Virus record (IMG/VR): IMGVR_UViG_3300032291_002754
Coordinates: 1 to 57,962 of that record
Reading direction: 5' to 3' (one strand)
Length of the DNA: 57,962 nt
Origin: a virus
Taxonomy: Duplodnaviria; Caudoviricetes
Positions 2,490-55,209 of the stretch are shown here, piece after piece (within the stretch, counting starts at the first letter, position 1; every line of letters begins with the position of its first letter). Made by a program: the position numbers and the translations under genes. The notes under the pieces are model-generated. The model was not told the DNA's origin and ran no database searches. It saw nothing but the letters and a program-made list of their open reading frames with translations.

Positions 2490-2925
2490 TCAACCTCCAT
2501 GTGTCGCGGACCGCAGCAGCACGCGCAGCCAAGTCCTTGGGCATGAGATCATCGGCATCGATCTCTTCCCAGTACTCACTGGTCAGAGGTTCCGCTTGCC
2601 GCACACGCGCTGCGCGACGGCAGACATCGGCCACAAACTCCACCGTCACACCGAACGCGCTGGCGATCTCTTCATGCGTTCGTTCCGGATAGCCGGCCGA
2701 CAGCAGGATCAATCGCTTGGTGGATGGCAGTCTGTTTTTCCGCAGCAACGCAGTGATCTTGCGTCCGACCTCCGGCCCAACCCCGATGCGGTCATAGACC
2801 ATCATGGCCGGCTCACGGTTGATCAATACGCGGCGATGAATCTCTGGCACCAAAGCCAAAGGCACTCCGGAACCAAGCCGCCACTCTTCCCCAAAACGTC
2901 GCTCTGGGCTGTTGTTCTTCCTCAT
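2236..2925 (-). CDS. Putative HTH DNA-binding protein
   Basis: THEEIASAFGVTVEFV HTH-like segment; C-terminal tail overlaps the next gene. Confidence 0.55.
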   Translation of the reverse strand: MRKNNSPERRFGEEWRLGSGVPLALVPEIHRRVLINREPAMMVYDRIGVGPEVGRKITALLRKNRLPSTKRLILLSAGYPERTHEEIASAFGVTVEFVADVCRRAARVRQAEPLTSEYWEEIDADDLMPKDLAARAAAVRDTWRLNGVVEGRLSGSAIQGPPGGTSVGGRTPDRGTRGRSRQEAGAAQSQPAEGSLSNPRRRGPRTAGDKGQGPKVHMPRRLSLRHGAC

Positions 2926-4523: not shown

Positions 4524-4612
4524 GTGACCCCTCCATGCGGTTACTGCCGCCGGGGAGATATCCGTCTCTCCCCGGCGACAGGTGCGTCCGTGCAAACCAC
4601 TTCCGTCCTAGA

Positions 4613-40823: not shown

Positions 40824-41047
40824 TTTTTGTTGTTGTGGTCAGAACCCGAGAAGCGAACTGTTGGATGCTCCATGAACATCACGCGCATGGTGGCGAGGTG
40901 GTCATCGAAAGCCCGTGCCGCTGCCATCCAGTGGTTGCGCTCCTTGACCAGACGCTCAATCTCGTCCGCCGCCTCCTCCATCAGAGGATCCTTGCCCTTG
41001 AACGAGAACGACCTGTCCCGAAGTCGTTCCACCAGGCTGTTGAACAT
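40820..41047 (-). CDS. Hypothetical protein
   Basis: LVERLR...EAADEIERL motif; start MFNSL. Confidence 0.7.
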   Translation of the reverse strand: MFNSLVERLRDRSFSFKGKDPLMEEAADEIERLVKERNHWMAAARAFDDHLATMRVMFMEHPTVRFSGSDHNNKK

Positions 41048-41180
41048 CGCGATTCTCCACTGGGGCTGGGGGGATACGGAAGGACACATTGCCGGACGGG
41101 AAGAACTGGATGACGGCCTCCAAGGCTTCCAGGCGGGCTGACAGTGACCTGACGGCGGCGAGAAGCTCTTCGGTGTCCAT
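40956..41180 (-). CDS. Hypothetical protein
   Basis: MDTEELLAAVRSLSARLEALE coiled coil; first gene after the non-coding region. Confidence 0.55.
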   Translation of the reverse strand: MDTEELLAAVRSLSARLEALEAVIQFFPSGNVSFRIPPAPVENRDVQQPGGTTSGQVVLVQGQGSSDGGGGGRD

Positions 41181-41515
41181 GGCGCTACATCCCGTGCGGT
41201 TAGTTGCGCGCCATAGTAGCGCATTTCACGGCCTAATAGTAGCGCGCCCTCACAGACCACGTTGGTTTGGAAATGGGTGAAAACCACATGGTTCTAGGAA
41301 GTTAGAAAAAATCCAGGTGGGGATATGACAAGAACCTCCGGGCTTCGACGGGGGCGGGCCGGGGTGGTTCAACTCACCCCAGCCCTGCCCCCAAACCCTT
41401 GCCCCGCCGGGAGTTAGGTGTTTCGTCCGGCTTGCCAATCGGACAAGCGGCCGAAAACGACCCCTCCGGCGGACGGTCGCGGCGTCGGCCGCGTTGCCGT
41501 GCATCGTCACCATCC

Positions 41516-41550
41516 AAAAACCTAACGGGGCGATCAGCGGAAAAAATCTT
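41516..41550 (-). promoter_or_regulatory. Early motif copy 1 (A/T tract + CGCCCCGTTAGGTTT)
   Basis: One of 8 oriented intergenic copies. Confidence 0.7.
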
Positions 41551-41611
41551 TCCCGCAAACCACCCGACCGCATCCCCCCGCAGGGGAACAGGGTCGGACA
41601 GTCTGCCCGTG

Positions 41612-41647
41612 GGTAGGGGGGGTGAAATCCTGGCCACCCCCCCTACC
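41612..41647 (-). terminator. 13-bp perfect hairpin after 41658-42089
   Basis: GGTAGGGGGGGTG/CACCCCCCCTACC; no T tail. Confidence 0.5.
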
Positions 41648-41657
41648 GGGGCGTCTG

Positions 41658-42089
41658 CTATTCGGACCGCCCGTAGGCTGCGGCGACAGCGTCTGCCGCC
41701 GACAGTCCAAGCCTGTTGCACTTGCGGCGGGCATCGGACTGCATCGCCTCCGCTGCGACCATCTGGTCAAGCGGCGACGGAACGTGGCAGCGGGCCGTTT
41801 CCCGCACCGCCACGGCCTGCATGGCCTCCGCGACCTTCTCCGGCGTCCGCCTGTTCTTGCCCTGCGGCTGACGCCACCCGCCACCCCGCCAGACCTTCCT
41901 AACGATCTTGGTGAAGTCTTCCGGCGTGGCCGGCGGCAACCGCCACTCCCTCCGCAGACCCCAAACGAATGCCGCTTGGGCGGCCTCTTCTGCCGCCTCC
42001 CGTCCCAGACCGTACCACCGGGCGGACCGTTCCAGATCGGCAAGGATCAGCCGGAAGACTTCGTTACTGGCAGTCTTGACCCATTCCAT
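41658..42089 (-). CDS. Protein with a sigma region-2-like segment
   Basis: LERSARWYG...AAEEAAQAAFV resembles ECF DAEDxxQExF; no clear region 4. Confidence 0.5.
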   Translation of the reverse strand: MEWVKTASNEVFRLILADLERSARWYGLGREAAEEAAQAAFVWGLRREWRLPPATPEDFTKIVRKVWRGGGWRQPQGKNRRTPEKVAEAMQAVAVRETARCHVPSPLDQMVAAEAMQSDARRKCNRLGLSAADAVAAAYGRSE

Positions 42090-42215
42090 CGTTCTTCTCC
42101 CCATGGTGACTATCACAGTGTGTCAGCACTGTGCCGGGATTGTAACACCGTTTCCGCGGCACTGCAACCCCTTACTATATCGGCAGAATGGCGGTTGAAC
42201 TCCGGCCAATCGCAG

Positions 42216-42251
42216 CCCCTCCCCAGAGGCTTGGGCGTATCTGGGGAGGGG
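42216..42251 (-). terminator. 12-bp hairpin after 42271-42456
   Basis: CCCCTCCCCAGA/TCTGGGGAGGGG. Confidence 0.5.
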
Positions 42252-42270
42252 TTCGCGACGGGCCGCGGGA

Positions 42271-42456
42271 TCAAGCCTTGACGTAGGCGTTCAGGCCGAT
42301 CACAAGCGGCTTCCCGTCCACAAGGACGGTGGTCTTCTGGTTACCCCCGGTGCTGGCCACCCGCAGTCCCTTGCCGGAACTGGTGGGCAGGAGGTTCGGC
42401 TCCACCGGGATGCGGACGGTCAAGATGCCCTTTTCGATCTTCGCTTCGATGCTCAT
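42271..42456 (-). CDS. Small conserved-looking beta protein
   Basis: SSGKGLRVASTGGN...IGLNAY; RBS GGAG. Confidence 0.8.
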   Translation of the reverse strand: MSIEAKIEKGILTVRIPVEPNLLPTSSGKGLRVASTGGNQKTTVLVDGKPLVIGLNAYVKA

Positions 42457-42505
42457 TGTGAAGTCTCCGTTTCGGCCATCGTTCCTGCCGCTCGTCGCGG
42501 CTTAC

Positions 42506-42540
42506 AAAAAACCAACGGGGCGGTGCGTCAGAAAAATCTT
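42506..42540 (-). promoter_or_regulatory. Early motif copy 2
   Basis: AAGATTTTTC...CGCCCCGTTGGTTTTT. Confidence 0.75.
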
Positions 42541-42585
42541 TCGGCCGGACGATTTTTTCGATCTATATATAGCCTCGCGATTTTG

Positions 42586-42618
42586 AAAAGTTTTTTTGGA
42601 TCATCGCCCCGTTAGTTT
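42586..42618 (+). promoter_or_regulatory. Early motif copy 3, divergent from copy 2
   Basis: AAAAGTTTTTTT...CGCCCCGTTAGTTT. Confidence 0.75.
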
Positions 42619-42619
42619 C

Positions 42620-42800
42620 GCGGCGGCGATGTCGTTTTCGCCGCTGCGTCCGCCGTCGATGTTCGACGGCTTTCCACTGCCCCCCGCGGCAGACCTCGTC
42701 GGCCGCACCCTGCCGGGTGGCCGGTGGCACTCTGATGCGGGCAGCGGTCGTTTGCCTGAGTGTGCGGGCAGTTGGGGCTAGTCGCGACGGCGGACGCTGG
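42620..42800 (+). ncRNA. Candidate structured leader RNA
   Basis: 13-bp perfect long-range pair 42646-42658/42785-42797 enclosing nested stems. Confidence 0.45.
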
Positions 42801-42832
42801 GGCTATCCATGCGGGCAAGTGAGGGTGTTTCC

Positions 42833-43585
42833 ATGCGCGTCTCCTATGGCAAGGCCAACAGCAAGTTGGTGCGGTTGCAGGCTCTTCTGGGCCGCAAGGT
42901 CTACTCTTGGTCGATCCTCTCTGGGAAGAACTGCACCTATGCCAAGGACTGCAAGGTCTGGGCTGAGAGGGATTCCCAGACGGGCAGGACACGCAAGGTG
43001 CGCTCCCCGCTGACGGTGTTCGACTGCTTCTCTGCCTCTGAGGAAGCACTGTATCCCAGCGTGTATGACTCTCGGGCGCGGAACTCTGAGGTTCTGATGC
43101 TGAGTCAGTCCCAGATGACCGAGGTCATGCTGGCCGGCATACCCAAGAATGCCGGAGTCATTCGCATCCATGTCGGCGGTGACTTCAAGACGCAGGAGTA
43201 CTTCGATGCGTGGCTGGATGTGACTCTGCGCCGTCCGGAGCTGCTCTTCTACGCCTACACCAAGTCCATCCCGTTCTGGCTGAAGAGGGTGGACAGCATC
43301 CCGGACAACTTCAGGCTGACCGCCTCCCGCGGTGGCCACCGTGACGATCTGATCGCGGCCCATGGGCTGAAAGAGGCCGTTGTGGTCTACACCGAGCAAC
43401 AGGCCGCTGATCTGGGTCTGGAGATCGACCATGACGATAGCCATGCCGCGCTGGGCAGCACGTCTTTTGCCCTGCTGATCCACGGCAAGCAGGCCGCTGG
43501 CACAGAGGCCGCTGCTGCGGTGCGTGCGCTGAAGGGCAAGGGGTCTTACTCACACAAAGTGAACAAGGCCCTGGCTCTGGCCTGA
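42833..43585 (+). CDS. Gp88-like protein
   Basis: NSKL, CTYAKDC, RIHVGGDF, FYAYTKS, NFRLTASRGG. Confidence 0.8.
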   Translation: MRVSYGKANSKLVRLQALLGRKVYSWSILSGKNCTYAKDCKVWAERDSQTGRTRKVRSPLTVFDCFSASEEALYPSVYDSRARNSEVLMLSQSQMTEVMLAGIPKNAGVIRIHVGGDFKTQEYFDAWLDVTLRRPELLFYAYTKSIPFWLKRVDSIPDNFRLTASRGGHRDDLIAAHGLKEAVVVYTEQQAADLGLEIDHDDSHAALGSTSFALLIHGKQAAGTEAAAAVRALKGKGSYSHKVNKALALA

Positions 43586-43595
43586 CGCAGAAACC

Positions 43596-43629
43596 GGAAT
43601 TTTTCGTTTCATCGCCCCGTTGGTTTTTT
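43596..43629 (+). promoter_or_regulatory. Early motif copy 4
   Basis: GGAATTTTT...CGCCCCGTTGGTTTTTT. Confidence 0.75.
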
Positions 43630-43661
43630 GGATCGATCCGTTTCCCCAAAGGAGTTCCACC

Positions 43662-43856
43662 ATGCGCGTTTTCTGGGTCTACAACCGGACGGGTGATTCG
43701 TCGTGGCGTCTGCATGAGGTGATTGCGGCCCCCAATCGGAAGGCCGCTGTGCGCGCCCTTGACGCCGCCTCTTCCCGCCGGCTGCGGGACGGCATGGTCA
43801 TGGTCGGTCCGGCCCTCAACAAGACCCTTGCCCCTAACCGCACTGTGGAGGTTTGA
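43662..43856 (+). CDS. Hypothetical protein
   Basis: RBS AAGGAG, start MRVFW. Confidence 0.7.
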   Translation: MRVFWVYNRTGDSSWRLHEVIAAPNRKAAVRALDAASSRRLRDGMVMVGPALNKTLAPNRTVEV

Positions 43857-44068
43857 TGTACGCCTACAAGATGCCACCGAAGCGGGTGTTCCGCGACCGA
43901 TTCAAGGGCAGTGATGCACTGTTTGAGGCTTGCTGGAGGCAGTACCGCCAGTACCTCAACGGTGCTATCGATGACCCGACCTGTGACGATGACGTGATGG
44001 GATGGCTGGAATCCATTGCGTCGGAGCGCGTCAATTCCAGTTCCTCCAGGTTCTACCTCTACGGCTGA
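43856..44068 (+). CDS. Hypothetical protein
   Basis: RBS GGAGG, TGATG coupling. Confidence 0.7.
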   Translation: MYAYKMPPKRVFRDRFKGSDALFEACWRQYRQYLNGAIDDPTCDDDVMGWLESIASERVNSSSSRFYLYG

Positions 44069-44086
44069 CAGAAAGGCGGTGCGACA

Positions 44087-44272
44087 GTGAAAGAGAACGT
44101 GAAGATTGTGCTGACCAAGGACGAGGCCGTTGAGTTGGAGGACGTTCTTGGTGAGTCCATTGAGACTCTGAAGAACTCCCTGCGGCGATCCGACTATCCA
44201 TCGCTAGATGACTCTCACCGGCTCGCAGTTCTGACCGACATCTGGAATCTACTGTCCGACGCCATGGTATAG
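44087..44272 (+). CDS. Hypothetical protein
   Basis: 61 aa, helical. Confidence 0.65.
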   Translation: MKENVKIVLTKDEAVELEDVLGESIETLKNSLRRSDYPSLDDSHRLAVLTDIWNLLSDAMV

Positions 44273-44283
44273 GGGGAACGCTA

Positions 44284-44610
44284 ATGCCTACCAAATCTTG
44301 GGCCGTGATCTACGAATTGAATGACCCTTCGTTCCAGAACATCATGGGCGGTCCGCACTACAACGTCGTTGACATAGACGAGGGAGAAGAGGTTGTTGCC
44401 ACCGTCTGGATTGACGATGACGCCAACAAATGCCAGCGCGATGCACTGCTTCTTGCTGCGGCCCCCAACTTACTGCGAGCCTGCGTTGACGCAATCAAAT
44501 GGGGAGAGGCGCAGGATGACACAGTGGCGCCGCGATGGATTCGACGCATGGCCAAGGCAGTGCAACTGGCACTGAATGGCGACCAGCACTCTCGGACGTT
44601 CTACGACTGA
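44284..44610 (+). CDS. Hypothetical protein with AAAPxLL motif
   Basis: DALLLAAAPNLLRAC, a common phage early-gene motif. Confidence 0.75.
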   Translation: MPTKSWAVIYELNDPSFQNIMGGPHYNVVDIDEGEEVVATVWIDDDANKCQRDALLLAAAPNLLRACVDAIKWGEAQDDTVAPRWIRRMAKAVQLALNGDQHSRTFYD

Positions 44611-44636
44611 CCTCAAACACACCGGAGAGTCTTTGC

Positions 44637-44906
44637 ATGGCCAAGTTCAAGGTCGATCTGCGCTATTCTGCGGAGTACTCCACTACTGTGGTCGTGGAGG
44701 CGCGAGACATTGAGTCTGCGCAGGAGTTACTTGAGTACGCAGATGGAGACTACATGGAGAGTCTTCTGCACTGGAAGACCATCGATTGGCAGATGCCTCA
44801 CGTCATTGACATCAACCCCACCGAAGACTGCGCGGTCTGCCAGAAGTTGATGGATCATTGTTTCAATGAGAAGCGGCAGTCTGTAGCGCGAAGAAACAGG
44901 GGGTAA
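44637..44906 (+). CDS. Hypothetical protein
   Basis: VVVEARDIESA; RBS GGAG. Confidence 0.7.
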   Translation: MAKFKVDLRYSAEYSTTVVVEARDIESAQELLEYADGDYMESLLHWKTIDWQMPHVIDINPTEDCAVCQKLMDHCFNEKRQSVARRNRG

Positions 44907-44910
44907 TGAA

Positions 44911-45195
44911 ATGTTTAACAACCTCAATGTGCAGTACCTGTTCTCCGATGGACCGTGGACGGACGGGGTTTGCAGGCGATTCATACTGTCAGTGAATGCT
45001 TGCTCCGATAGGGTCGAAAGTGAAGTCTTCGGAGAACCAAAGGAACTGAGCGATTACATGGAACTGTATGAGCATGCCATCATTCTGGTTCCAGTCAGCG
45101 ATGAGCCGTGGCGCATCCTGCCACTGACCCCATACGGTGCAAAGCAATTGGCGGCTGCGGCGACCTTCACCCAGTACAAGGAGGCAGAGGTATGA
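44911..45195 (+). CDS. Hypothetical protein
   Basis: Packed ORF. Confidence 0.65.
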   Translation: MFNNLNVQYLFSDGPWTDGVCRRFILSVNACSDRVESEVFGEPKELSDYMELYEHAIILVPVSDEPWRILPLTPYGAKQLAAAATFTQYKEAEV

Positions 45196-45494
45196 TCACC
45201 TACAAACTGTACAGCGCGGATTGCCGCAGTATCCTGCCGGTCGGATCGGAGTTCGACGCCATTCTCACACGCCGTGACAACCACGTTGAACGGCGGCGCG
45301 TCACCAAGCAGACAAGCCGCATGATGGTGACCACCGTGATCGGTGGGCCGCGTGACGGCCAAGAATGCGAGTGCATCTGGAGCGATGTCGAAGCGGATGT
45401 CGATGAGGACGGCGTGATCATCATGTCGGCTGGGTGGTGCGGCGTGTTCATGCGGATCGACAACGTGAACCGTGCCATTTGCGTTGTGGCCTAG
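45192..45494 (+). CDS. Hypothetical protein
   Basis: ATGA coupling; IGGPRDG motif. Confidence 0.65.
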   Translation: MITYKLYSADCRSILPVGSEFDAILTRRDNHVERRRVTKQTSRMMVTTVIGGPRDGQECECIWSDVEADVDEDGVIIMSAGWCGVFMRIDNVNRAICVVA

Positions 45495-45526
45495 ATTTTT
45501 TTCGTCCATCGCCCCGTTGGTTTTTT
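45493..45526 (+). promoter_or_regulatory. Early motif copy 5
   Basis: AGATTTTTTT...CGCCCCGTTGGTTTTTT. Confidence 0.75.
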
Positions 45527-45539
45527 GAAAGGAACCCAA

Positions 45540-45869
45540 ATGGCAACCTACTATCTTGCGACAGCAAACGGCTTTGACCCCTTTGACTGGTTACCAGTGG
45601 GCATTCTGAACGAACAGTCAACCCCCATAGAGGTGCGCTGCGCCAGGGTTCAAGCCGACGCCGCCGCGCGAGTCTGGGGAATCCCATCAGCGGTCGCCAT
45701 GCGCGTCATGCGCGGCGAGGTGCGTGTCAAGTGTGATGAGGAAGGCTTCATGCGGATCTACGATGACACCAAGATCATGCTGCCAGACGTTGCCGCCGGG
45801 ATACTGAGTTCCGGCACCACATACACGTCAGTCAGTGACGATGCTGACTTCGTCAGGGTCTTGGAGTAG
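45540..45869 (+). CDS. Hypothetical protein
   Basis: RBS AAGGA, start MATYY. Confidence 0.7.
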   Translation: MATYYLATANGFDPFDWLPVGILNEQSTPIEVRCARVQADAAARVWGIPSAVAMRVMRGEVRVKCDEEGFMRIYDDTKIMLPDVAAGILSSGTTYTSVSDDADFVRVLE

Positions 45870-45899
45870 ACTTCGGATCGGGGCTTGGCCCCATGGTGG

Positions 45900-45946
45900 C
45901 CCCCGCCGGGGAAAGTTGTCAGCAAGTACCCGGCGGGGGTTTTTTT
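45900..45946 (+). terminator. Rho-independent terminator
   Basis: CCCCCGCCGGG/CCCGGCGGGGG stem followed by T7. Confidence 0.8.
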
Positions 45947-45971
45947 CTGCGCTTCAAAGGGGCGTGAACGT

Positions 45972-46412
45972 ATGATCACCGTGCGAATGAACCTGTTGAA
46001 TGGCAAGCACAAGGGCCATTGGGAGATCACCTACCCAGGCGGACGGCGTGAATACGCAGACCCCGCAGAGGTGGCGCTGGTCATGCGCCAGTGCAGGCTT
46101 GTGAACGACACGGCCACTGCCAACCGCATTCACTCACGCAAGCAGAGCAAGACTCGCTGCTCTTGGGTGGAGGCCAGCCAAGTTGACGTGTGGAGCAGTA
46201 CCTATTCGATGAGGTACACCACTCTCTTTGAACACACGCTCCTGTCCTACGATCCGCACGTTCGGCCTCACTGGGTTCGCACTGCGGTGTCACTGTATGC
46301 GAGTCACGTTTCGACGGCTGACGGCGAGGTCTTTCCGCTTCTGCGCACAGATGGAACAAAGATATTTTTCAGCCCCTCCGAAACCACAGACTTTTATCGC
46401 GCGGGCAAGTGA
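45972..46412 (+). CDS. Hypothetical protein
   Basis: Start MITVRMNL; YDPH motif. Confidence 0.7.
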   Translation: MITVRMNLLNGKHKGHWEITYPGGRREYADPAEVALVMRQCRLVNDTATANRIHSRKQSKTRCSWVEASQVDVWSSTYSMRYTTLFEHTLLSYDPHVRPHWVRTAVSLYASHVSTADGEVFPLLRTDGTKIFFSPSETTDFYRAGK

Positions 46413-46436
46413 CCAGACGCTTCGGGCTGTAGGAAC

Positions 46437-46470
46437 GAATTAAAAATCACGCGAGCGCCCCGTTAGTTTT
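46437..46470 (+). promoter_or_regulatory. Early motif copy 6
   Basis: AATTAAAAAT...CGCCCCGTTAGTTTT. Confidence 0.75.
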
Positions 46471-46484
46471 CCGGAGGAACATCA

Positions 46485-46715
46485 ATGGACGCACCAAACA
46501 TCCCACAACAACAGACAGCCGGACTCACCGTTGGGTCATTGCGCTATTTGCTGGAAGGCTTGGACGATATGACGCCCATCGGCGTTGCGTGGCAGGACGG
46601 TGAAGTACCCGGCGATGACGCTCCGGCAGTCTCGGTGTTCGGGTTTCGGCGCGACCGCCACAACTGCCAGTCGGTCGATGTGCTTGTTGGTCTTGCATGG
46701 ATGGGCGATGAGTGA
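46485..46715 (+). CDS. Hypothetical protein
   Basis: LTVGSLRYLLEGLDD; RBS GGAGG. Confidence 0.75.
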   Translation: MDAPNIPQQQTAGLTVGSLRYLLEGLDDMTPIGVAWQDGEVPGDDAPAVSVFGFRRDRHNCQSVDVLVGLAWMGDE

Positions 46716-46748
46716 CCGCACACCCTTTCTTGACAGGAGGAACATCAA

Positions 46749-46976
46749 ATGCCCACGCCAGATCACACTGACGATAGCAGGCTGTTCAGCATCGACGTTG
46801 TCCGGAGGCGCATTGCGGAGTGGGTTGCGTCTATTGCTTCCATCGATGAACTGGCTGCAATGTGGTCGGAGTTTGAGCCAAGTGCGCCAGTCCAACTGTT
46901 CGACAGAGCCATGAGAGAACTCTCTGACATCTACCATGACGGCGAGAGAGTACCCTATCAAAGAGGTGACAAATGA
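46749..46976 (+). CDS. Hypothetical protein
   Basis: RBS AGGAGG. Confidence 0.7.
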   Translation: MPTPDHTDDSRLFSIDVVRRRIAEWVASIASIDELAAMWSEFEPSAPVQLFDRAMRELSDIYHDGERVPYQRGDK

Positions 46977-47134
46977 TGCGCGTTGTCGTTGAGTTTCTGT
47001 TTGAAGACATCGAAGACCCAAACGGCGTCCGCGCCGACGAGGCGGTTGAGTTGCTTTCTCTTGGGCTGGAGGAGGCAGGGATTCACTGCGATTCATGGCA
47101 CATTGACGATGTGTACGCAGGCCAAGCCGGCTGA
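46973..47134 (+). CDS. 53 aa acidic hypothetical protein
   Basis: MMRVVVEFLFEDIEDPNG...; RBS GAGGTG; not in the ORF track. Confidence 0.65.
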   Translation: MMRVVVEFLFEDIEDPNGVRADEAVELLSLGLEEAGIHCDSWHIDDVYAGQAG

Positions 47135-47157
47135 CCAGTCTTTGAAGGGAGTCATCA

Positions 47158-47736
47158 ATGGCGCGTGTTCTTGTCGGATGCGAGTTCTCCGGTACGGTGC
47201 GGTCTGCGTTCAGAGCTGCCGGTCATGAGGCGTACAGTTGCGACCTCTTGCCGGCAGAGGATGGCGGGCCGCACCTCCAGTGTGATGTTCGCGAGGTACT
47301 CAATGACAACTGGGACTTGGCAATCTTCCACCCACCATGCACCCACCTTGCGGTCAGCGGCGCACGTCACTTCCACCGCAAGCAGGCAGAGCAAGCCGAT
47401 GCGCTGGAGTTCGTTCGCGCCCTGCTGAACGCACCGATTCCGCGGATTGCACTGGAGAATCCCGTGTCTGTGATCAGCACACGCATTCGCAAACCCACCC
47501 AGATTCTACAGCCGTACATGTTCGGCCACCCGGAGAGCAAGAAGACGTGCCTCTGGTTGGTGAACCTTCCGGCCCTGCGTCCGACAGATATCATGAGGAA
47601 CCGTGGGCGCTGGGAGAACCAGACGCCAAGCGGGCAGAACAAACTTGGCCCGTCGCCAGACCGATGGAAGATCCGGAGCCGCACATATCCCGGCATTGCC
47701 AACGCAATGGCCGTTCAATGGGGAGAAATACTATGA
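47158..47736 (+). CDS. Small DNA cytosine-C5 methyltransferase-like protein
   Basis: VLVGCEFSG, HPPCT, ENP, RSRTYPGIA. Confidence 0.85.
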   Translation: MARVLVGCEFSGTVRSAFRAAGHEAYSCDLLPAEDGGPHLQCDVREVLNDNWDLAIFHPPCTHLAVSGARHFHRKQAEQADALEFVRALLNAPIPRIALENPVSVISTRIRKPTQILQPYMFGHPESKKTCLWLVNLPALRPTDIMRNRGRWENQTPSGQNKLGPSPDRWKIRSRTYPGIANAMAVQWGEIL

Positions 47737-47978
47737 CGCTTGAGGAGTTCGTAGCCACCCGCACCAGGGAAGAGTCCATTGGTGAGCGCATCGGGTCGCC
47801 TCACATGCAGACGGGTGGGTTCCTGTACTGCGGCGTCTACTACATCTGCGATCCGCTGGAAGACGGTCAGTACTGGACGATACTGGGCAATCAACAGCCG
47901 TCCGGAACTCTGGATTACTGCGAGCAACGACTGTACGAATGGGCCAAGGCCAACGAGGGTTGGGGCGACAGCCACTGA
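47733..47978 (+). CDS. Hypothetical protein
   Basis: ATGA coupling, start MTLEEF. Confidence 0.7.
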   Translation: MTLEEFVATRTREESIGERIGSPHMQTGGFLYCGVYYICDPLEDGQYWTILGNQQPSGTLDYCEQRLYEWAKANEGWGDSH

Positions 47979-48007
47979 CTCCATTCCAAGACATCATCAA
48001 GGGGTAA

Positions 48008-48256
48008 GTGATGCCACGGGTTTCTGTATGCACCAACTTGGCCGATAAAGAGAGACTGGGCGCTCGTTTCTCTGGTGAGAACAACAATCTGGACTACTGC
48101 CGCAAGTGTTATGCGGCCCTGACAGAGTCGGTCATTGCGCTCCATCACGGCGTGTCGGTAGACGCTGTGGATATGGGAGCGGACCACCCGTACTACGCAG
48201 ACGATGACTACTCCTGCGAGAGGTGCGGCAAGAGGCTGGGCATATCTGACGAGTAG
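48008..48256 (+). CDS. Small Zn-binding protein
   Basis: CRKC...CERCG. Confidence 0.7.
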   Translation: MMPRVSVCTNLADKERLGARFSGENNNLDYCRKCYAALTESVIALHHGVSVDAVDMGADHPYYADDDYSCERCGKRLGISDE

Positions 48257-48271
48257 TCTTCTCGCGGTTTC

Positions 48272-48305
48272 GGAAAATTTCTTTTCACCGCCCCGTTAGT
48301 TTTTT
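48272..48305 (+). promoter_or_regulatory. Early motif copy 7
   Basis: GGAAAATTT...CGCCCCGTTAGTTTTTT. Confidence 0.75.
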
Positions 48306-48349
48306 GGGTGCGCGCTTGCGCGCCGAGCCTTCCGCAACAGGAGATAGCC

Positions 48350-48727
48350 GTGTCTTTGAATTGGGATGTCACCGCATGCGAGCCGCCGGCCAACTTCGAC
48401 AACCCGGGCGATACCAACCGCTTGGACAGCCTCATCTGGGGTGCGTTGTACGTTGACATTGGCACAATCACTAACGCAAACATTGAGGAGTGGGTGTGGA
48501 GGGTGGAGTTCCTGCGCCGCTCTCTTGGCGATGGAAAATCTCCGTTCACCCTGCGGTATGCAGATGGCCGTGAACAGAAGTTGCACCGAGCCGATCTTCG
48601 TCGGTGGGTTGGACTACGCACCAACGTGACAACGACCTCACGCAAGAAGTTCATCAAGAAGGTCATGGATCAAATGGTGCAGCAGGTGAATGCGATTGTC
48701 GCTGCAAAGATGAAGGAGGAGGAGTGA
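48350..48727 (+). CDS. Hypothetical protein
   Basis: GTG after AGGAG; SLNWD...GLRTNV. Confidence 0.75.
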   Translation: MSLNWDVTACEPPANFDNPGDTNRLDSLIWGALYVDIGTITNANIEEWVWRVEFLRRSLGDGKSPFTLRYADGREQKLHRADLRRWVGLRTNVTTTSRKKFIKKVMDQMVQQVNAIVAAKMKEEE

Positions 48728-48963
48728 TGAATAAGCAGAGGGTCAAGAACCTTCGGGCATGGGCGCTGTCCAAGTGCCGCGAGTGGAATTGGAATGTCAA
48801 TCTCGCAGAGATAGCGGCACAGTTGATTGACGAGGACATCGGCACTGACTCCGAAGAGTTTGCTGCGCTTGGCAGTGCGTTTGAGGAGTTCTTTGGACCC
48901 TCTGACCAAAATGCCAAGCACAACTGGGAGATCGTCGGTCACATCATTGAACAGTTTTCCTAA
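48727..48963 (+). CDS. Hypothetical protein
   Basis: RBS GGAGG, TGATG coupling. Confidence 0.7.
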   Translation: MNKQRVKNLRAWALSKCREWNWNVNLAEIAAQLIDEDIGTDSEEFAALGSAFEEFFGPSDQNAKHNWEIVGHIIEQFS

Positions 48964-48977
48964 CAGGAGGTGATGCG

Positions 48978-49238
48978 ATGCCGTGGGCAAGGTTGAGATA
49001 CATCGCGGTTGAGATTGACGATCATCCCAAATACCCGTTCGTCGTTACCGCATGGCGGAACGTCGGAGACATCTACTGCGGCGACAGGTTCTCCCGAAGT
49101 GTGGGGGATATTCTGATCGAAGCGTGGCGGGAAGACGGCATTGAGGTCAGCGTGACAGCGGCTTCCTCTGAAGAGGGAGGTTATGAGACGTATGCAGAAA
49201 CTACGCCTGTCAGTCCGCCCGATCTGGGCGCTGGGTAA
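48978..49238 (+). CDS. Hypothetical protein
   Basis: RBS AGGAGG. Confidence 0.65.
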   Translation: MPWARLRYIAVEIDDHPKYPFVVTAWRNVGDIYCGDRFSRSVGDILIEAWREDGIEVSVTAASSEEGGYETYAETTPVSPPDLGAG

Positions 49239-49347
49239 AGGTCACCCGGCCAAGATCAGCGGGGCCGGCGCGCACTCCGACCGCAGGACACGCCGCCTGC
49301 GGACACGCGGAGATCAACGGCGGCGTTCTGTGGAGGATGGCCAGTGA
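49183..49347 (+). CDS. 54 aa Arg-rich protein
   Basis: SGAGAHSDRRTRRLRTRG; RBS GGAGG; not in the ORF track. Confidence 0.65.
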   Translation: MRRMQKLRLSVRPIWALGKGHPAKISGAGAHSDRRTRRLRTRGDQRRRSVEDGQ

Positions 49348-49547
49348 GCGTCATTGACAAGATGACAGATGCGGATGTGCGACAGGCGCTTTCTCTCTTG
49401 TTCAATGCAAGAGAGTTGCTTCTGAAGTGCCTGCGGAGGGCATACCCAAATGCTACCCCGGGCTATCTGGAGTACGAAGTCGGTCGCGAAATCGGGCAGT
49501 ACCTTGACCGCGTTGGATACAACCCCTTCCAAGAACAGGAGGACTGA
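49344..49547 (+). CDS. Hypothetical protein
   Basis: GTGA coupling. Confidence 0.65.
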   Translation: MSVIDKMTDADVRQALSLLFNARELLLKCLRRAYPNATPGYLEYEVGREIGQYLDRVGYNPFQEQED

Positions 49548-49742
49548 ATGCCCTTGCCTAAGTTCACATCGAAGGTTCGGCGTGGGATGTGGCTGATCGT
49601 AGCCAGATCCCCAACCGTGATGATGGCAGAGGAGTCGGACGTTGGGTTTGACAAGGAGGATCGCGAGGCCGTCCTGGCTGCGAGCCGGTACGCCGAGGCG
49701 CACTGGCACCCCGATCCCGTAGAGAAGCACTTGGTTGATTGA
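49548..49742 (+). CDS. Hypothetical protein
   Basis: RBS GGAGG. Confidence 0.65.
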   Translation: MPLPKFTSKVRRGMWLIVARSPTVMMAEESDVGFDKEDREAVLAASRYAEAHWHPDPVEKHLVD

Positions 49743-49769
49743 CAGTAGCGCGAGAACGCGGCGGGTTGT

Positions 49770-49801
49770 AAAATTAATTTCAACAAACGCCCCGTTAGTT
49801 T
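49770..49801 (+). promoter_or_regulatory. Early motif copy 8
   Basis: AAAATTAATTT...CGCCCCGTTAGTTT. Confidence 0.75.
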
Positions 49802-49837
49802 CATGGATCGATGAAGTTTTCCCTTGGAGGTATGAGC

Positions 49838-50566
49838 ATGACCGGCATGATTCTGCACTGTGGCGGCGAGATCGTTGACCGCAATCAGATCGAAGACGTT
49901 TCCACCCCCAGCGCCACCAAGACGTGGCAGCCTGTGCCTCACAAGACGGTGATCGAACTGGTGGAGAAGAGCCTTGAAGGCTCCGGCCTCCCGATCACCG
50001 ACAGTTCCTTTGCCCTTGCCAAGAACGGCAATCGGATGTTCGGAGTGATCACCCTTGCCGGCGGCACCGACTATGCCACCGTCATCGGCGTTCGCAACAG
50101 CCATGACAAGTCGTTCCCCGTGTCCTTCTGCCTTGGTTCGCGGGTGTTTGTCTGCGACAACCTCGCCTTCTCGGCCGAGGTCACTGTCAAGACCATGCAC
50201 ACCCGCCTTGTGTTCGACCGCCTTCCTGGCACCATCAACGATGGCATTGCCAAGCTGGTGGCCGCGCGTGGCCGGCAGTCTGCCCGTATCGAAGCCTACA
50301 AGAACACGGCGGTGAACGGCCTGCCTCACCTCCATGATCTTGTCATTCGTTCCTACCGTGCCGGTGCGATCCCGGCGCGTGCCATCCCCGATGTGATTGC
50401 TGAGTACGATGCCCCGCGGCATCTGGAGTTCTGCGACCAGAACCTCTGGTCGTACTTCAACTGCGTGACCGAGGTGCTGAAGGAGTACGGCGATCTGCCT
50501 CGCCGCACCCAGCGCCTGCACGGCGTGGCCGACAGCGCCTGCGGCGGTCTGCTGCTTGCGGTCTAG
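49838..50566 (+). CDS. DUF932-family protein
   Basis: PVPH, RNSHDKS, RVFVCDNLAF, NLWSYFN. Confidence 0.85.
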   Translation: MTGMILHCGGEIVDRNQIEDVSTPSATKTWQPVPHKTVIELVEKSLEGSGLPITDSSFALAKNGNRMFGVITLAGGTDYATVIGVRNSHDKSFPVSFCLGSRVFVCDNLAFSAEVTVKTMHTRLVFDRLPGTINDGIAKLVAARGRQSARIEAYKNTAVNGLPHLHDLVIRSYRAGAIPARAIPDVIAEYDAPRHLEFCDQNLWSYFNCVTEVLKEYGDLPRRTQRLHGVADSACGGLLLAV

Positions 50567-50581
50567 GAACGATTGGAACTT

Positions 50582-50609
50582 GGGGGCGGCGTATCTGTGC
50601 GCCGCCCCC
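50582..50609 (+). terminator. GC-rich hairpin after DUF932
   Basis: GGGGGCGGCG/CGCCGCCCCC; no T tail. Confidence 0.45.
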
Positions 50610-50629
50610 TGCTACCCCCGGAGAATTGC

Positions 50630-51082
50630 ATGTCCTCTTTGCGTTACTCGCTGGCCTGCCTCGCTAACGAAGACCCGTTCGACCTACTGAAACGCACACT
50701 TGAGGCGTTGTTCCTTGAGTCGCTTCATGGCCATGAAAACAAAGATGCGATTGCATGCGTCGTGAACGCCATTCAGAAATACCGTGCAGGCTGTGATGAC
50801 GAGGACGATAATGGCGCAACGCTGAACGGCGGATCTTGGACTCACACGGGTGAGGGCGCCGAGATGTACTATCACCAAGCGTACATGAACGCGGCCAAGA
50901 GGAACGACATCTACGCATCCGAAGAGGATGGCGTCATGTGCGACTACCTTCCGATTGAATGCTTCTGGCATCGCAAGGAGTTGGCGGAACTTGCCCTTCT
51001 TGATCTGGGCCACGGCGTTTCTGTTCGACGGGAACTGACTAGGCTCGCCAAGGAGCATGCTGATTCGCAGGCCCGCAAGTAG
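50630..51082 (+). CDS. Hypothetical protein
   Basis: RBS GGAG, start MSSLRY. Confidence 0.7.
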   Translation: MSSLRYSLACLANEDPFDLLKRTLEALFLESLHGHENKDAIACVVNAIQKYRAGCDDEDDNGATLNGGSWTHTGEGAEMYYHQAYMNAAKRNDIYASEEDGVMCDYLPIECFWHRKELAELALLDLGHGVSVRRELTRLAKEHADSQARK

Positions 51083-51114
51083 TTCGGACATATCCACGGC
51101 AAGGAGGATCGACA

Positions 51115-51432
51115 GTGAAGAATAACAGGCTTGACATGGCGGCTTTCATCGCTGCCTACCAGCGGGCATACGAACAGGGGCGCACGGTTGGCGATCTCGC
51201 AAAGGAACTCGGCGTGACAGGCAACTGCCTGCACCAGCGCCGCTTTGTACTGGAGCGGAAGAAGGGCATCGTCCTGCCGACGTTGAAGCGGACGGTGGTC
51301 CGGCGGAAGTCGCGAGTCAGGCCAGCCGGCAAGGCATGGTCGGATGTTGAGATCCGCAACCCCGGCGCTGCAATGCCTGTGCGGATGCATGCTCCCGAGA
51401 CGTTCGTCATGTTTGTTGGAGGTGCTGCATGA
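51115..51432 (+). CDS. HTH DNA-binding protein
   Basis: TVGDLAKELGVT. Confidence 0.65.
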   Translation: MKNNRLDMAAFIAAYQRAYEQGRTVGDLAKELGVTGNCLHQRRFVLERKKGIVLPTLKRTVVRRKSRVRPAGKAWSDVEIRNPGAAMPVRMHAPETFVMFVGGAA

Positions 51433-51650
51433 GCGAATCACGGGTCACCATAACCGTGGAGCGCGGTGAGATTGATGCGCTCATGGAATCGCTGCGTACG
51501 CTGCGAGATCAGATGCGCAGGAGGCTGCATGACGCCAAGCCGGACACACCGGAGGGCGACTATCTTCGTGATGGACTACTGACGAATCTGTGGGTGATGG
51601 ATATCATCACCACTGGCATGAATTCATCTGCGACAAAGAGGAAGACGTGA
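51429..51650 (+). CDS. Hypothetical protein
   Basis: ATGA coupling. Confidence 0.65.
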   Translation: MSESRVTITVERGEIDALMESLRTLRDQMRRRLHDAKPDTPEGDYLRDGLLTNLWVMDIITTGMNSSATKRKT

Positions 51651-51784
51651 CATCTCGGCTCTGGCGGGACATCGTTTCGATACTGCAAGCACTGGCAACG
51701 GCCGTGCTGATGCTACTGACGGTCGAACTCACGGGCATTGCTCGTCAGTTGTTGGCCATGGCTATCACAGGGGGATCCAAATGA
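51647..51784 (+). CDS. Small membrane protein
   Basis: Hydrophobic IVSILQALATAVLMLLTV; GTGA coupling. Confidence 0.55.
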   Translation: MTSRLWRDIVSILQALATAVLMLLTVELTGIARQLLAMAITGGSK

Positions 51785-52122
51785 AGTTTGACGGCGTCGA
51801 TGAGAATACATGCGACCACCAAGTCACCTTGATGTTTGCGGACGCGCTGCGAAAGCACATCAACCGCAACGTGCGCGGCTGGAAACGGCACTGCAACAAT
51901 GCGGACATTGATTTCACAGAGGCTCCGGTCCTGTCGGCCATTACAATGCTGTGGCTGGAGTCAGTCGCAGGCACGTTTGGCATGGCAGCGTTTGAGAGTG
52001 CCGTTCAATTGTCATCCGATCTTCGGCCCTCTGATCCTGACGTTGAGAGGACTATGCGTCAGGCGGCGAGCGACTTCCTTCGCCGTTCGGAATGGCTCGC
52101 CAAGAAAGCGGGTGCCAATTGA
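51781..52122 (+). CDS. Hypothetical protein
   Basis: Packed ORF. Confidence 0.65.
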   Translation: MKFDGVDENTCDHQVTLMFADALRKHINRNVRGWKRHCNNADIDFTEAPVLSAITMLWLESVAGTFGMAAFESAVQLSSDLRPSDPDVERTMRQAASDFLRRSEWLAKKAGAN

Positions 52123-52463
52123 GACGCCAAGAATACATTTGCACTGGCGGGGCAGGCGATCCTCTCCGCTTGTTCGTTGTGCCTGTTGACGAGGACACGC
52201 TGAAGTTATGCGGCGATCCAGTGGAATGGACAGCGCATGTACCGCAGTCGGAGGTGGAGCTTGCCGTTGTCTGCTATCAAGAGGACCGCAACAAGGATCG
52301 CTATGGACCGCTATCGGACATCACGCCGCCGGATCAGTTCAAGGTTGTTGCTAGGTACTGGCATTCCGAGGAACTGCCTAACATCGACGGCAATCAAAAT
52401 ACCGCTGCCGTCATAGAGCGTCTGATCCGAGACGGCATTCTCCGGAACGGTGCCGATGACTGA
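52119..52463 (+). CDS. Hypothetical protein
   Basis: GGAGDPL; likely TTG start overlapping the upstream stop. Confidence 0.55.
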   Translation: MRRQEYICTGGAGDPLRLFVVPVDEDTLKLCGDPVEWTAHVPQSEVELAVVCYQEDRNKDRYGPLSDITPPDQFKVVARYWHSEELPNIDGNQNTAAVIERLIRDGILRNGADD

Positions 52464-52517
52464 GGCCATCGTCGCAGTGGCGGCATGGTTAATCATTCTG
52501 TTCGTAGCGAGGAAGTC

Positions 52518-53285
52518 ATGAGCAAGGTGTTCGGTTACGCCCGCGTTTCAACTGACGATCAAGCCAACAGCGCGGAGGCGCAGGAGCGGAAGATCCGCGA
52601 CTATGCGGCCAAGGAGGGCCTGGTGTTGGAACACATCTACGTTGACGAGGACGTGACCGGACGAATCCCACTACGCAATCGGCCGCAAGGCAAGTTGCTG
52701 TGGGAACGCATGGAGGCGGGCGACACGCTGTGCTTCTGCCGGATTGACCGTGTGTTCCGTAGTATGCGAGATGCATCGGACACCGCGTACAACTGGCGGA
52801 AGGACGGCATTGCCGTCATCATCCTTGATCTCAACATCAATCTGAGCGAGCCTGCCGGCCGGCTGTTCTTCCACCAGTTGGCTTCGTTCGCTGAGTTTGA
52901 GCGCGAACTGAACGGGCAGCGCGTACGCGAGGTGAAGAAGTTTCTTTCCGACAACGGTCGGCCTCACGGCAATCGCCCTTTCGGTTGGCGGCGCGACCGT
53001 CCCGGCAAGGGTGCGTCTTTTGTTCCTTGCCAGCAGGAGAGGGAACTCGCTGACCGCGTGAGTTCTTGGCATGATCACGGCCGGAGTTACCGCGAGATCG
53101 CCCTCGCTTTGTACTACCAGAAGGTTGCGAAGCCTGGCAAGAAGTGGTCGGAGCAGGGCAGGGGGATTCACTACTCTCACCGGGACGTTCACCGCTTGGT
53201 GCTGGCGCGTCAGCGTGGATACCCAATTTGCTCGCGAGAGTCCTTGCGAGTCTGCGAGACGCCATCGACGCAGAGCGCATGTTGA
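52518..53285 (+). CDS. Serine recombinase (resolvase/invertase catalytic domain plus short recombinase-like domain)
   Basis: GYARVSTDDQ, RIDRVFRS, AEFERE, RPFGW. Confidence 0.92.
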   Translation: MSKVFGYARVSTDDQANSAEAQERKIRDYAAKEGLVLEHIYVDEDVTGRIPLRNRPQGKLLWERMEAGDTLCFCRIDRVFRSMRDASDTAYNWRKDGIAVIILDLNINLSEPAGRLFFHQLASFAEFERELNGQRVREVKKFLSDNGRPHGNRPFGWRRDRPGKGASFVPCQQERELADRVSSWHDHGRSYREIALALYYQKVAKPGKKWSEQGRGIHYSHRDVHRLVLARQRGYPICSRESLRVCETPSTQSAC

Positions 53286-53724
53286 GGTCGAACTGTTCTG
53301 ACAGATCGGAGATTCTGCCCTTGGCCACAAAGCGGAACTCGGCCATCTCACGGTCGCGTTCCGGCAGGCAGGCTATCGCCTCGCGCAGGTGGTCCCTCTC
53401 ATCCGGGGCGCACAGAGAATCCTCCGCGCTGTCCATGCTGACCCTGTCACCGGGCGTCCTGGTCAGGCGGCGGATCGCCTTCAGCATGGCGTTCAGTATG
53501 GAGCGGGCGAAGTATTTCTTGGGGTAGGGCAGGCGGGCAGGATCGTAGGTGCGTGCGCTCTTGCACAGTGCCAGATATCCCTCGCCCTCCAGTTCTGGGA
53601 TGAGTGCGCTGCGCTGCCACGCCGGCCGGTTGGCGACGAAGTAGCGGGCCACCATTGGGACCATTGACTGGTATTCAGTGACGAGCGACTGTTGCCGCTT
53701 GGAGAGCTTGGATTGCTTTTTCAT
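52837..53724 (-). CDS. Sigma-70 family RNA polymerase sigma factor (regions 2 and 4) with a long C-terminal tail
   Basis: ELEGEGYLALCKSARTYDP, LREAIACLPERDRE, ISDLSEQF. Confidence 0.85.
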   Translation of the reverse strand: MKKQSKLSKRQQSLVTEYQSMVPMVARYFVANRPAWQRSALIPELEGEGYLALCKSARTYDPARLPYPKKYFARSILNAMLKAIRRLTRTPGDRVSMDSAEDSLCAPDERDHLREAIACLPERDREMAEFRFVAKGRISDLSEQFDLNMRSASMASRRLARTLASKLGIHADAPAPSGERPGESSESPCPAPTTSCQASQPSGSTKRGRSRGNSGRDHAKNSRGQRVPSPAGKEQKTHPCRDGRAANRKGDCREADRCRKETSSPRVRAARSVRAQTQRTKPTGGRTAGRQARSD

Positions 53725-53875
53725 GCTGGTGAAGTCGCTCGCGGGTATCTGCGACCAGTTCTGGCAGACCTTCCATGGCGTGTGCGATGAGCGTCACCTT
53801 GGCGTGAATGCTCATGGCCCACGGCACAACCGCGACCAACACAGTAGCGGCAATCAGTATCTCGTCAGTTGTCAT
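53675..53875 (-). CDS. Small protein with one TM helix plus coiled coil (holin-like candidate)
   Basis: ILIAATVLVAVVPWAM followed by a coiled coil. Confidence 0.6.
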   Translation of the reverse strand: MTTDEILIAATVLVAVVPWAMSIHAKVTLIAHAMEGLPELVADTRERLHQHEKAIQALQAATVARH

Positions 53876-54098
53876 CGTTCACCCCGCTGGCTATCACCTC
53901 AAGCAACCCCTTGGCCGCATCCTCCGGAAGCGCACCGCGCTTCACGTCATACATGATGCGGCGCACAGCCCTCTGCCAATTGTTCTCTGGGAACACATAG
54001 ACCCACGCGTGTGTGCCATCGCTGGCAGTGGCGCGTATTACCTCTTGCACTTCCCGTTTGGACAGTCTGTTGGCATTGTGCATTGGCAGGCCGTCCAT
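53865..54098 (-). CDS. Hypothetical protein
   Basis: Start MDGLP or MHNAN. Confidence 0.6.
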   Translation of the reverse strand: MDGLPMHNANRLSKREVQEVIRATASDGTHAWVYVFPENNWQRAVRRIMYDVKRGALPEDAAKGLLEVIASGVNDDN

Positions 54099-54265
54099 GA
54101 TTGGTTGTCTCCCGTGCGAACTTGTCCAGTGCCGCGGCACTTCTGGCATTGCGGATCTGGCGGCTTCGGCTGCGGAGCAGGCGCTGGCTGTTCCACGGTT
54201 GCGTGGAGCGCGCTCTGCACGGCACAGATCGCCACGTAGTGCGGTGTGTATGCGTCCCAGATCAT
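54038..54265 (-). CDS. CxxCxGxG Zn-finger protein
   Basis: CQKCRGTGQVRTGD...CQC...C...C. Confidence 0.7.
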   Translation of the reverse strand: MIWDAYTPHYVAICAVQSALHATVEQPAPAPQPKPPDPQCQKCRGTGQVRTGDNQSWTACQCTMPTDCPNGKCKR

Positions 54266-55209
54266 ATGCGTCCAATGCTCCCGAGGTCTGGCAAGGTTCT
54301 GGCAGGGTAGCCACGCACATCGCTGTACGCCCATGCGTCTTCGCTGTCCACGCACACGGCCCAGTCCTCTGCGCGAGTGACGATCATCCCCGGTATCCAC
54401 TTTGGGTACGCCGCCGGCCAGTCATTTACAGGCTTGTTCCACAGCCCCCAGGAATTCGCCACAAAAAAAACTGTGAACGGCCAAAACTCTTTCGTATCGT
54501 CATAACCAACGGTCGCCATATCATGCGCCCACCCGGGCGACACGCGGCCATGCACATTCTTGGAATTGGGGCGAGAGTCCCACGCAGCCATCTGTCCGGA
54601 GTGGATTCCGTAGCCACTGAACAGCGCGTCCATCGCGGACTCCACTGTCTTGACAAGAGCGATGGTCCCTACCTTCCGCTCACGGCATATGTCCTGTACC
54701 GCTTTTGGTACACCCGTCCGCCCCCATCCCTGCCCGAGAGCGCCGTTGTACTTGGACAGATTGACTACGCCCGGGAAATCCTTGCGGGCAGCAAAGCCCA
54801 CATCCCTCTCAAACCGTGACGCCGCTGCCGGCGACATTCCAGATCCGGAATGGCCGCGCGCTCCGTAGGTCGGCTCTGTTGCAGTGCGGGCAAACCAGTC
54901 ACCCACCTCACCTTTGATGAGTAGCGAGACGGCGCGAGTAATGTCACGGGCGTTGCGACTACCATGGGAAACACAATCGCCCTCTGTCTGAACTTCACTG
55001 AACGCACCGGGGTCAAGTTGCGTGTAGTACTGCCACAGCAGGGCGCGTTTGCCTGCGCCGGACTGTGGTACGGAGAACGCTCGCATCGGATTGGAGGACA
55101 GGAATTCCTCGCGCTCCGCTTCGTTCGGGACATAGCCCCTGAATCCGCCCGCTTGGTAGGCGGACAGCAGTTCCTCCGGTCCGCGGAACATCGGCTCATC
55201 GGGCGGCAT
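54262..55209 (-). CDS. Papain-like (C1) cysteine peptidase
   Basis: QTEGDCVSHG, WAHDMATVGYD, ANSWG. Confidence 0.85.
   Translation of the reverse strand: MPPDEPMFRGPEELLSAYQAGGFRGYVPNEAEREEFLSSNPMRAFSVPQSGAGKRALLWQYYTQLDPGAFSEVQTEGDCVSHGSRNARDITRAVSLLIKGEVGDWFARTATEPTYGARGHSGSGMSPAAASRFERDVGFAARKDFPGVVNLSKYNGALGQGWGRTGVPKAVQDICRERKVGTIALVKTVESAMDALFSGYGIHSGQMAAWDSRPNSKNVHGRVSPGWAHDMATVGYDDTKEFWPFTVFFVANSWGLWNKPVNDWPAAYPKWIPGMIVTRAEDWAVCVDSEDAWAYSDVRGYPARTLPDLGSIGRI

Follow-up and report, generated by a model that had tools for sequence, protein, structure and literature searches.

The complete 57,962-bp record of an uncultured virus with terminal repeats, which over its whole length is the window analysed here, holds 213 nt (42620-42832) of extensively paired sequence directly before its gp88 gene, and the question is what such a stretch would do there. 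A sequence-only reading had found no credible gene in it and proposed an undescribed ncRNA or conformational switch at the start of the first early transcript. Leftward genes of this phage extend to 42456 and the rightward ones begin at 42833, so that the stretch lies in a divergent control region; its placement in the “first early transcript” would follow from this gene order. It is tentatively read here as a 214-nt untranslated, cis-acting 5′ leader of the gp88 mRNA, which probably affects the processing, stability or translation of that message. A leader that heads the rightward genes is the natural reading, since the stretch adjoins a repeated, orientation-consistent promoter-like box on its upstream side and gp88 on its downstream side.

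The gp88 gene (42833..43585, +) encodes a GP88-family protein (Pfam PF17338, E = 1.5e-30). The ATG at 42833 is taken as its true start because a ribosome-binding site, GAGGG (42821..42825, +), lies 7 nt upstream and because the predicted N-terminus agrees with those of homologues (MRVSY here, MRVRY and MALRY elsewhere). The phage also encodes a P22-like portal, an ERF recombinase, a helicase, a resolvase-type recombinase and an integrase-like gene. A search with the portal led, at 65–74% identity, to a large group of ~60-kb uncultured phages, ten of which (G001–G010) were used as relatives, five of these as whole or nearly whole genome sequences. Strains were compared using DNA contigs from four sequencing runs of one study, among which may be the run that yielded this DNA; the strain contigs cover positions 42390-42694 of the leader region (runs X2 and X3 have no contig over 42717-42918). 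Over the leader the strain contigs diverge by 3.8–6.8%, about equal to the neighbouring DNA.

The promoter-like box, CGCCCCGTTAGTTT (42605..42618, +), is preceded by an A/T tract, GAAAAGTTTTTTTGG (42585..42599, +), of the GGAWTTTTTC type, which also occurs at the other boxes and in relatives. It is one of eight copies confined to 41519-49801, each consisting of the same unit of A/T tract, CGCCCCGTTRGTTT and TTTGGA placed before an ORF, with two copies on the minus strand (41519 and 42509) and six on the plus strand (42605, 43613, 45510, 46456, 48289 and 49788). The motif CGCCCCGTTRGTTT is exact in seven copies and has one mismatch in the eighth. A search allowing up to two mismatches returned nine matches compared to 1.01 ± 0.90 expected, a number reached in none of 100 shuffles. 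All eight boxes have the A/T tract in front and the orientation of the next ORF, and the distance from box end to start codon is 214 nt at the gp88 copy and 15, 16, 35, 36, 47 and 52 nt at six others; the 52-nt distance belongs to the divergent copy (42509..42522, −), which precedes a 61-aa ORF (42271-42456, −). This position, orientation and repetition suggest that the box acts as a promoter. It is not recognisable as a sigma-70 promoter, and no canonical sigma-70 promoter was found in 41000-44000. Relatives have the same layout of A/T tract, box and TGG before their first rightward gene with their own phage-specific box sequences; the box sequence of this phage was absent from the five relative genomes compared, and 31 single matches to the motif in viral_contigs resemble chance hits.

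The box resembles GGAAT-N17-CGTT, an ECF-type layout. The neighbouring 143-aa ORF (41658-42089, −) is all-helical and a real gene, judged by its codon score and a 91%-identical protein elsewhere. A protein atlas leads from it to ECF sigma factors with scores of 0.91–0.93, and its single-sequence structure model is poor (pLDDT 58.6); no sigma match came from Pfam, from PDB sequences or from a full HMMER search, and the ECF assignment is no more than a lead. If the 143-aa protein were a sigma factor, the eight boxes could be its promoters. The 61-aa ORF, divergent from gp88, belongs to no Pfam or PHROG family, and in the protein atlas lies near clusters of 59–62-aa viral and bacterial proteins with up to 835 members.

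Consistent with the earlier judgement that no credible gene is present, codon-usage scores over 42600-42825 do not exceed 0.04 in any of the six frames, compared to 0.13–0.27 for gp88, and none of the five mechanical ORFs over the leader matches a Pfam or PHROG family at E ≤ 0.01. A pseudogene remnant was considered and rejected (tblastn of 518 ORF pieces from the early regions of relatives, best E = 0.012). The Rfam search was blank, with no match at E ≤ 1 in 41000-44000, none at gathering score in the whole genome record and none in 12 loci of relatives; no tRNA or tmRNA was found. Homologues of the leader were likewise absent by blastn against phage records, by nhmmer and blastn over 80 + 80 loci around gp88 homologues (viral_contigs and metagenome_contigs), and in the five whole related genomes, while a palindrome scan returned 34 loci, all of them unrelated coding DNA. 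A typical MITE was also considered, as inverted repeats are present, and rejected because neither arm boundary shows a target-site duplication and the genome has no other copy; the same 80 + 80 loci yielded no second copy of the inverted-repeat element.

All of the pairings named in the sequence-only reading are present at or close to where it had placed them. Hairpin 1, GCGGCGGCGA/TCGCCGCTGC (42620-42629/42638-42647, +), begins one or two bases past the box and has a 10-bp GC-rich stem with one G-U pair and an 8-nt loop, within which strain contigs carry indels (42631/42634). The long-range helix joins a 5′ arm (42646..42658, +) to a 3′ arm (42785..42797, +) by perfect 13-bp complementarity and closes a 152-nt domain; it is extendable to 19-nt arms at 89% (42640-42658/42785-42803), and its 3′ arm is flanked by two 8-bp direct repeats, TGGGGCTA (42773-80 and 42798-805, +). 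Both helices were confirmed with pairing probabilities near 1: 0.72–0.99 for the pairs of hairpin 1 (0.99–1.0 with the start region included) and 0.93–1.0 for 11 pairs of the long helix, the two outer pairs of which compete with hairpin 1. Within the domain, CUGCCC (42677-82) pairs with GGGCAG (42766-71), one of three GGGCAG/GGGCAA copies, and GGCAGAC (42688-94) with GUUUGCC (42750-56) in the minimum free energy (MFE) structure, whereas the proposed GGCC..ACCC/GGGT..GGCC stem appears only in an alternative fold. The perfect palindrome GCCGTCGA-TGT-TCGACGGC (42652..42670, +) does share a strand with the long helix (42652-58), but as a hairpin it has an equilibrium probability of 0.00, and forcing it costs 6.9 kcal/mol (−107.1 compared to −114.0). 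Folds of the first 55–140 nt contain it, and at 180 nt, the next length folded, it is gone; it would be a folding intermediate, transient during synthesis only. G-U pairs make up 15 of the 79 pairs of the MFE structure, 14 of them in interior stems that are possible only in plus-strand RNA. The two strongest helices are pure Watson-Crick and therefore do not point to one strand and could function at the DNA level.

Whether this pairing exceeds chance depends on the statistic used. The MFE of the 213 nt (−114.0 kcal/mol) is better than that of dinucleotide shuffles (−103.2 ± 4.9), though modestly so (z = −2.19, with 6/200 shuffles as good), and the opposite strand does as well or better (z = −2.71). 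In a GC-regressed genome scan of 541 windows of 213 nt, the leader ranks 15 on the plus strand and 333 on the minus strand. The first 50 nt after the gp88 box are more distinctive (z = −3.71) compared to those after the seven other boxes (−1.03 to +1.56). Perfect inverted repeats of at least 13 bp with a 3–300-nt loop number four in the genome compared to 0.29 expected, a count not reached in any of 200 block shuffles, and three of the four fall in 41500-42900, where the shuffle mean is 0.005. Given these mixed fold, first-50-nt and inverted-repeat statistics, the two main helices are not accidental, while the interior pairing is about as expected at 70% GC. A perfect inverted repeat of 16 bp, its arms 65 nt apart (3256-3271/3337-3352), lies inside the helicase gene (2922-4595, −).

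The neighbouring divergent region holds a second long, ORF-free structured stretch (41150-41650, −), downstream of the box copy at 41519-41532 (−). Its segment 41150-41520 (−) folds with z = −4.55 (0/100 shuffles as good), and of the four top-ranked minus-strand windows in the genome scan, three begin in this stretch (41196, 41303 and 41517). There is no coding signal and no Rfam match across ~41100-41650, and 41305-41392, which includes the tract GGATTTTTTC, is 77% identical to the relative G008. The stretch is a candidate ncRNA or ~470-nt leader of a small gene ending at 40820. Just past the stop of the 143-aa ORF stands a perfect 13-bp hairpin, GGTAGGGGGGGTG-N10-CACCCCCCCTACC (41612-41647), in which a strain contig from run X2 has both 41614 T>C and 41645 A>G, a compensatory change in that the two positions pair.

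The conserved part of the leader is a decamer, located in its last 25 nt. With two further near-copies, it occurs three times in the leader, at spacings of 27 and 47 bp: ATGCGGGCAG (42735..42744, +), GTGCGGGCAG (42762..42771, +), the GGGCAG of which is the one paired with CUGCCC in the MFE structure, and the family-conserved CATGCGGGCA(A) (42808..42818, +). Exact matches to ATGCGGGCAR number only two in 58 kb, both inside the leader. The family-conserved decamer (42808-42817) is 3 nt before GAGGG and, as in G002, G008, G009 and G010, CATGCGGGCA is single-copy in the genome (~0.2 expected per genome); in those four relatives a few bases separate it from the downstream GGAGG of the first rightward ORF. 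The pattern was found in a further three of five genomes searched (G003, G004 and G007, none in G001 or G005; a reversed control gave 0) and also in G006 (L497), so that 8/10 relatives carry the decamer before the first rightward gene, 3–8 nt from the ribosome-binding site. The gene that follows varies, being gp88 here and a 69-aa MYCD... protein, a 113-aa MSK... protein or others in relatives. Outside the close relatives, CATGCGGGCA with a ribosome-binding site and ATG also heads genes in L472, L481, L498, L526, L468 and L459, in L468 ~16 nt after a TTGACT-N17-TATTAT promoter-like site; 119 matches to the decamer pattern are probably mostly chance.

In relatives, the box is about 75 nt from the ATG and a 40–50-nt hairpin abuts or overlaps the decamer. 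These hairpins were judged by per-sequence z-scores: of the 61-nt segments, 12/13 have negative z and 6/13 have z ≤ −2.4. RNAalifold on a MAFFT alignment retained only two invariant pairs, and the helix register slides by 1–2 columns between sequences. The gp88 leader departs from this family pattern, since its own 61 nt (42758-42818) are unstructured (z = +1.19) and the local 40–50-nt hairpin is absent. It shares with the family early-leader element a decamer 3–8 nt before the ribosome-binding site, downstream of an A/T tract and box, and differs in having a 152-nt domain, the base of which is 11 nt before the third decamer, a 5′ hairpin of its own and two additional decamer-like copies. The hairpin of the relatives is replaced here by a much larger closed domain, which carries those additional copies.

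Analogous stem-closed segments occur in the early regions of other phages. In G010, a 324-nt non-coding stretch precedes gp88 and its last part is a 132-nt segment (L290, 28039-28170) with 20-nt arms, CTGAATAGCCCCCTCTGGGC and its near-complement; two segments of this kind, of 132 and 216 nt, occur in G002 (L292/L293, 19686-20040) and one of 120 nt in L352 (7416-7535). Common ~20-bp arms of the CTGAATAGCCCCCTCTGGGC type enclose unrelated interiors in all three, and between G002 and G010 an inner 8-bp hairpin shows two differences, one a double change (G-C to U-A) and the other from U-A to U-G. Given these segments, long stems directly before the ribosome-binding site are a habit of the phage group.

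As a cis-acting leader, the stretch would be transcribed from a start at or just past the box CGCCCCGTTAGTTT (42605-42618). The nascent RNA would form the very stable 5′ hairpin (42620-47) and the small palindromic hairpin first; once the distal arm had been made, the 13-bp helix (42646-58/42785-97) would displace the small hairpin and close the 152-nt domain. The 5′ hairpin may protect the 5′ end of the RNA, the long, nearly continuous helix may be an RNase III-type processing or stability element, and the decamer at the translation start may be read by a host or phage factor, so that the leader would influence, in cis, what becomes of the gp88 mRNA. RNase III is described in one account (PMC5371410) as targeting RNAs of lambda, T7 and T3, with cleavage that can free an occluded ribosome-binding site. 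The unpaired probability of the gp88 start region (0.39–0.52) is within that of six other box-driven genes (0.30–0.71); the ribosome-binding site is as accessible as elsewhere and no translational gating is therefore visible.

The reading first proposed, a new ncRNA or a conformational switch (riboswitch-like or an antitermination element of the put/nut type) using two mutually exclusive structures, is quite improbable, although two stem-loops do form in the first 51 nt after the box, the second later displaced by the long helix, and their position matches that given for HK022 putL, just downstream of PL (PMC9378689). A switch is not borne out: no terminator-like site follows any stem on the plus strand in 42600-42840, the ribosome-binding site is hidden to no greater degree than those of the six other box-driven genes, so that neither type of expression platform is seen, and the alternative folds are not of comparable stability, being 6.9 kcal/mol apart with the rival hairpin at zero equilibrium probability. 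Terminator-like sites in 42800-55000 are not in excess (15 compared to 10.0 ± 3.3), and processive antitermination would be unneeded because most rightward genes carry their own box. Nor does an independent ncRNA fare better, as the sequence is not conserved, Rfam is blank at E ≤ 1 and nothing signals the 3′ end of a free-standing transcript.

Two further explanations, each unlikely, place the function in the DNA or deny the stretch one of its own. The repeats may act as DNA, either as operator sites just downstream of the promoter or as 13–19-bp recombination sites flanking a 126-bp invertible segment. A phage or host regulator would find palindromes at 42620-47, 42652-70 and 42781-88 (GTCGCGAC) and three direct decamer copies with spacings of 27 and 47 bp, and the strongest helices, being perfect Watson-Crick, are equal on both strands. 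A second perfect 13-bp inverted repeat (41913-41925/42050-42062) with nearly the same spacing (124 compared to 126 nt) lies inside the protein-coding 143-aa ORF, the likeness between the two 150-nt segments closed by these repeats being weak (z = 2.95 and 2.07), and the common ~20-bp arms of the relatives, closing 120, 132 and 216 nt of unrelated interior, fit sites read as DNA. Invertons are invertible DNA switches flanked by short inverted repeats, and the leader is like them in that 13–19-bp inverted repeats enclose 126 bp directly ahead of a gene, in a phage that encodes an integrase-like gene and a resolvase-type serine recombinase (52485-53285, E = 8.3e-31, kept in 5/5 relatives compared). 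Unlike an inverton, however, the segment holds no promoter, neither box nor A/T tract being enclosed for inversion to switch; the recombinase gene is 10 kb away, and the locus is known here from contigs alone. Against DNA sites in general, no DNA-binding protein was identified next door, where the 61-aa and 143-aa neighbours are without family, and the 14 G-U pairs of the interior stems form in plus-strand RNA only. It is similarly doubtful that the stretch is a spacer between the box and the conserved decamer and ribosome-binding site, left by recombination, by small duplications or by the decay of an inverted-repeat element in a family where the gp88 cassette would be mobile. In favour of this, gp88 is found in 3/10 relatives with a different upstream sequence each time, and among 160 homologues there is no neighbour synteny; one strain contig leaves the phage sequence at 42602, at the box, the 3′ helix arm sits between two 8-bp direct repeats, and the leader is unique, its strain divergence is not reduced and its whole-fold z is only −2.19. 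But perfect inverted repeats of at least 13 bp are far above chance and concentrated here, a typical MITE is contradicted by the lack of a target-site duplication and a second genome copy, and three copies of a family-conserved decamer, with both exact ATGCGGGCAR matches of the genome inside the leader, would be unlikely in junk.

A cis-acting leader, the preferred reading, can be set beside known systems. In lambda, the leader of the N gene runs from PL over roughly 200 nt, includes nutL and, ahead of the start of N, a hairpin processed by RNase III, and its processing changes expression; Steege et al. reportedly wrote on this leader in 1987. The gp88 leader is alike in that ~200 nt of untranslated sequence lead from a putative early promoter to a first early gene and a large hairpin comes shortly ahead of the ribosome-binding site, and unlike in that it has no identified boxA/boxB-like element, its phage no identified N homologue, its ribosome-binding site is not predicted to be occluded, and there is no sequence similarity. 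In T7, hairpins processed by RNase III lie between the early genes; Dunn and Studier 1973 is among the references of PMC5371410. Like the T7 early hairpins, the stems here are long, nearly continuous and just before the ribosome-binding site of a cistron, with cleavage as a prediction, and the relatives G010 and G002 have 20-bp stems directly before gp88 or another gene; the gp88 leader differs in having an 11–13-bp stem with stacked short helices and not one 20-bp helix. The put sites of HK022 are described in one source as about 70 nt with two stem-loops, putL lying just downstream of PL (PMC9378689). The gp88 leader is likewise predicted to be a folded RNA directly after an early promoter, with two stem-loops in its first 51 nt, but the second stem-loop is lost at equilibrium, the element is three times longer, it matches no Rfam family and no downstream terminators are evident in the phage. 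By analogy, the likeness to put would extend to position and the two early stem-loops only.

Overall, the leader is an ordinary feature of a known general kind, with a unique sequence and weak global fold statistics. A broader proposal, to be regarded as speculative, is that the decamer CAUGCGGGCA, present three times in the leader, and the 120–216-nt stem-closed domains form an undescribed early-gene control system, in which a conserved factor of host or phage would read the decamer at the translation start of any gene that heads the rightward set, the stems would be its processing or recombination sites, and an expanded version with three sites would stand before gp88. If functional, the leader would be one more long, structured 5′ leader controlling a first early gene, in a group of phages without a cultured member. 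The eight-copy box, the decamer in 8/10 relatives and the cluster of long inverted repeats outweigh the leader itself as handles on how this group regulates its genes.
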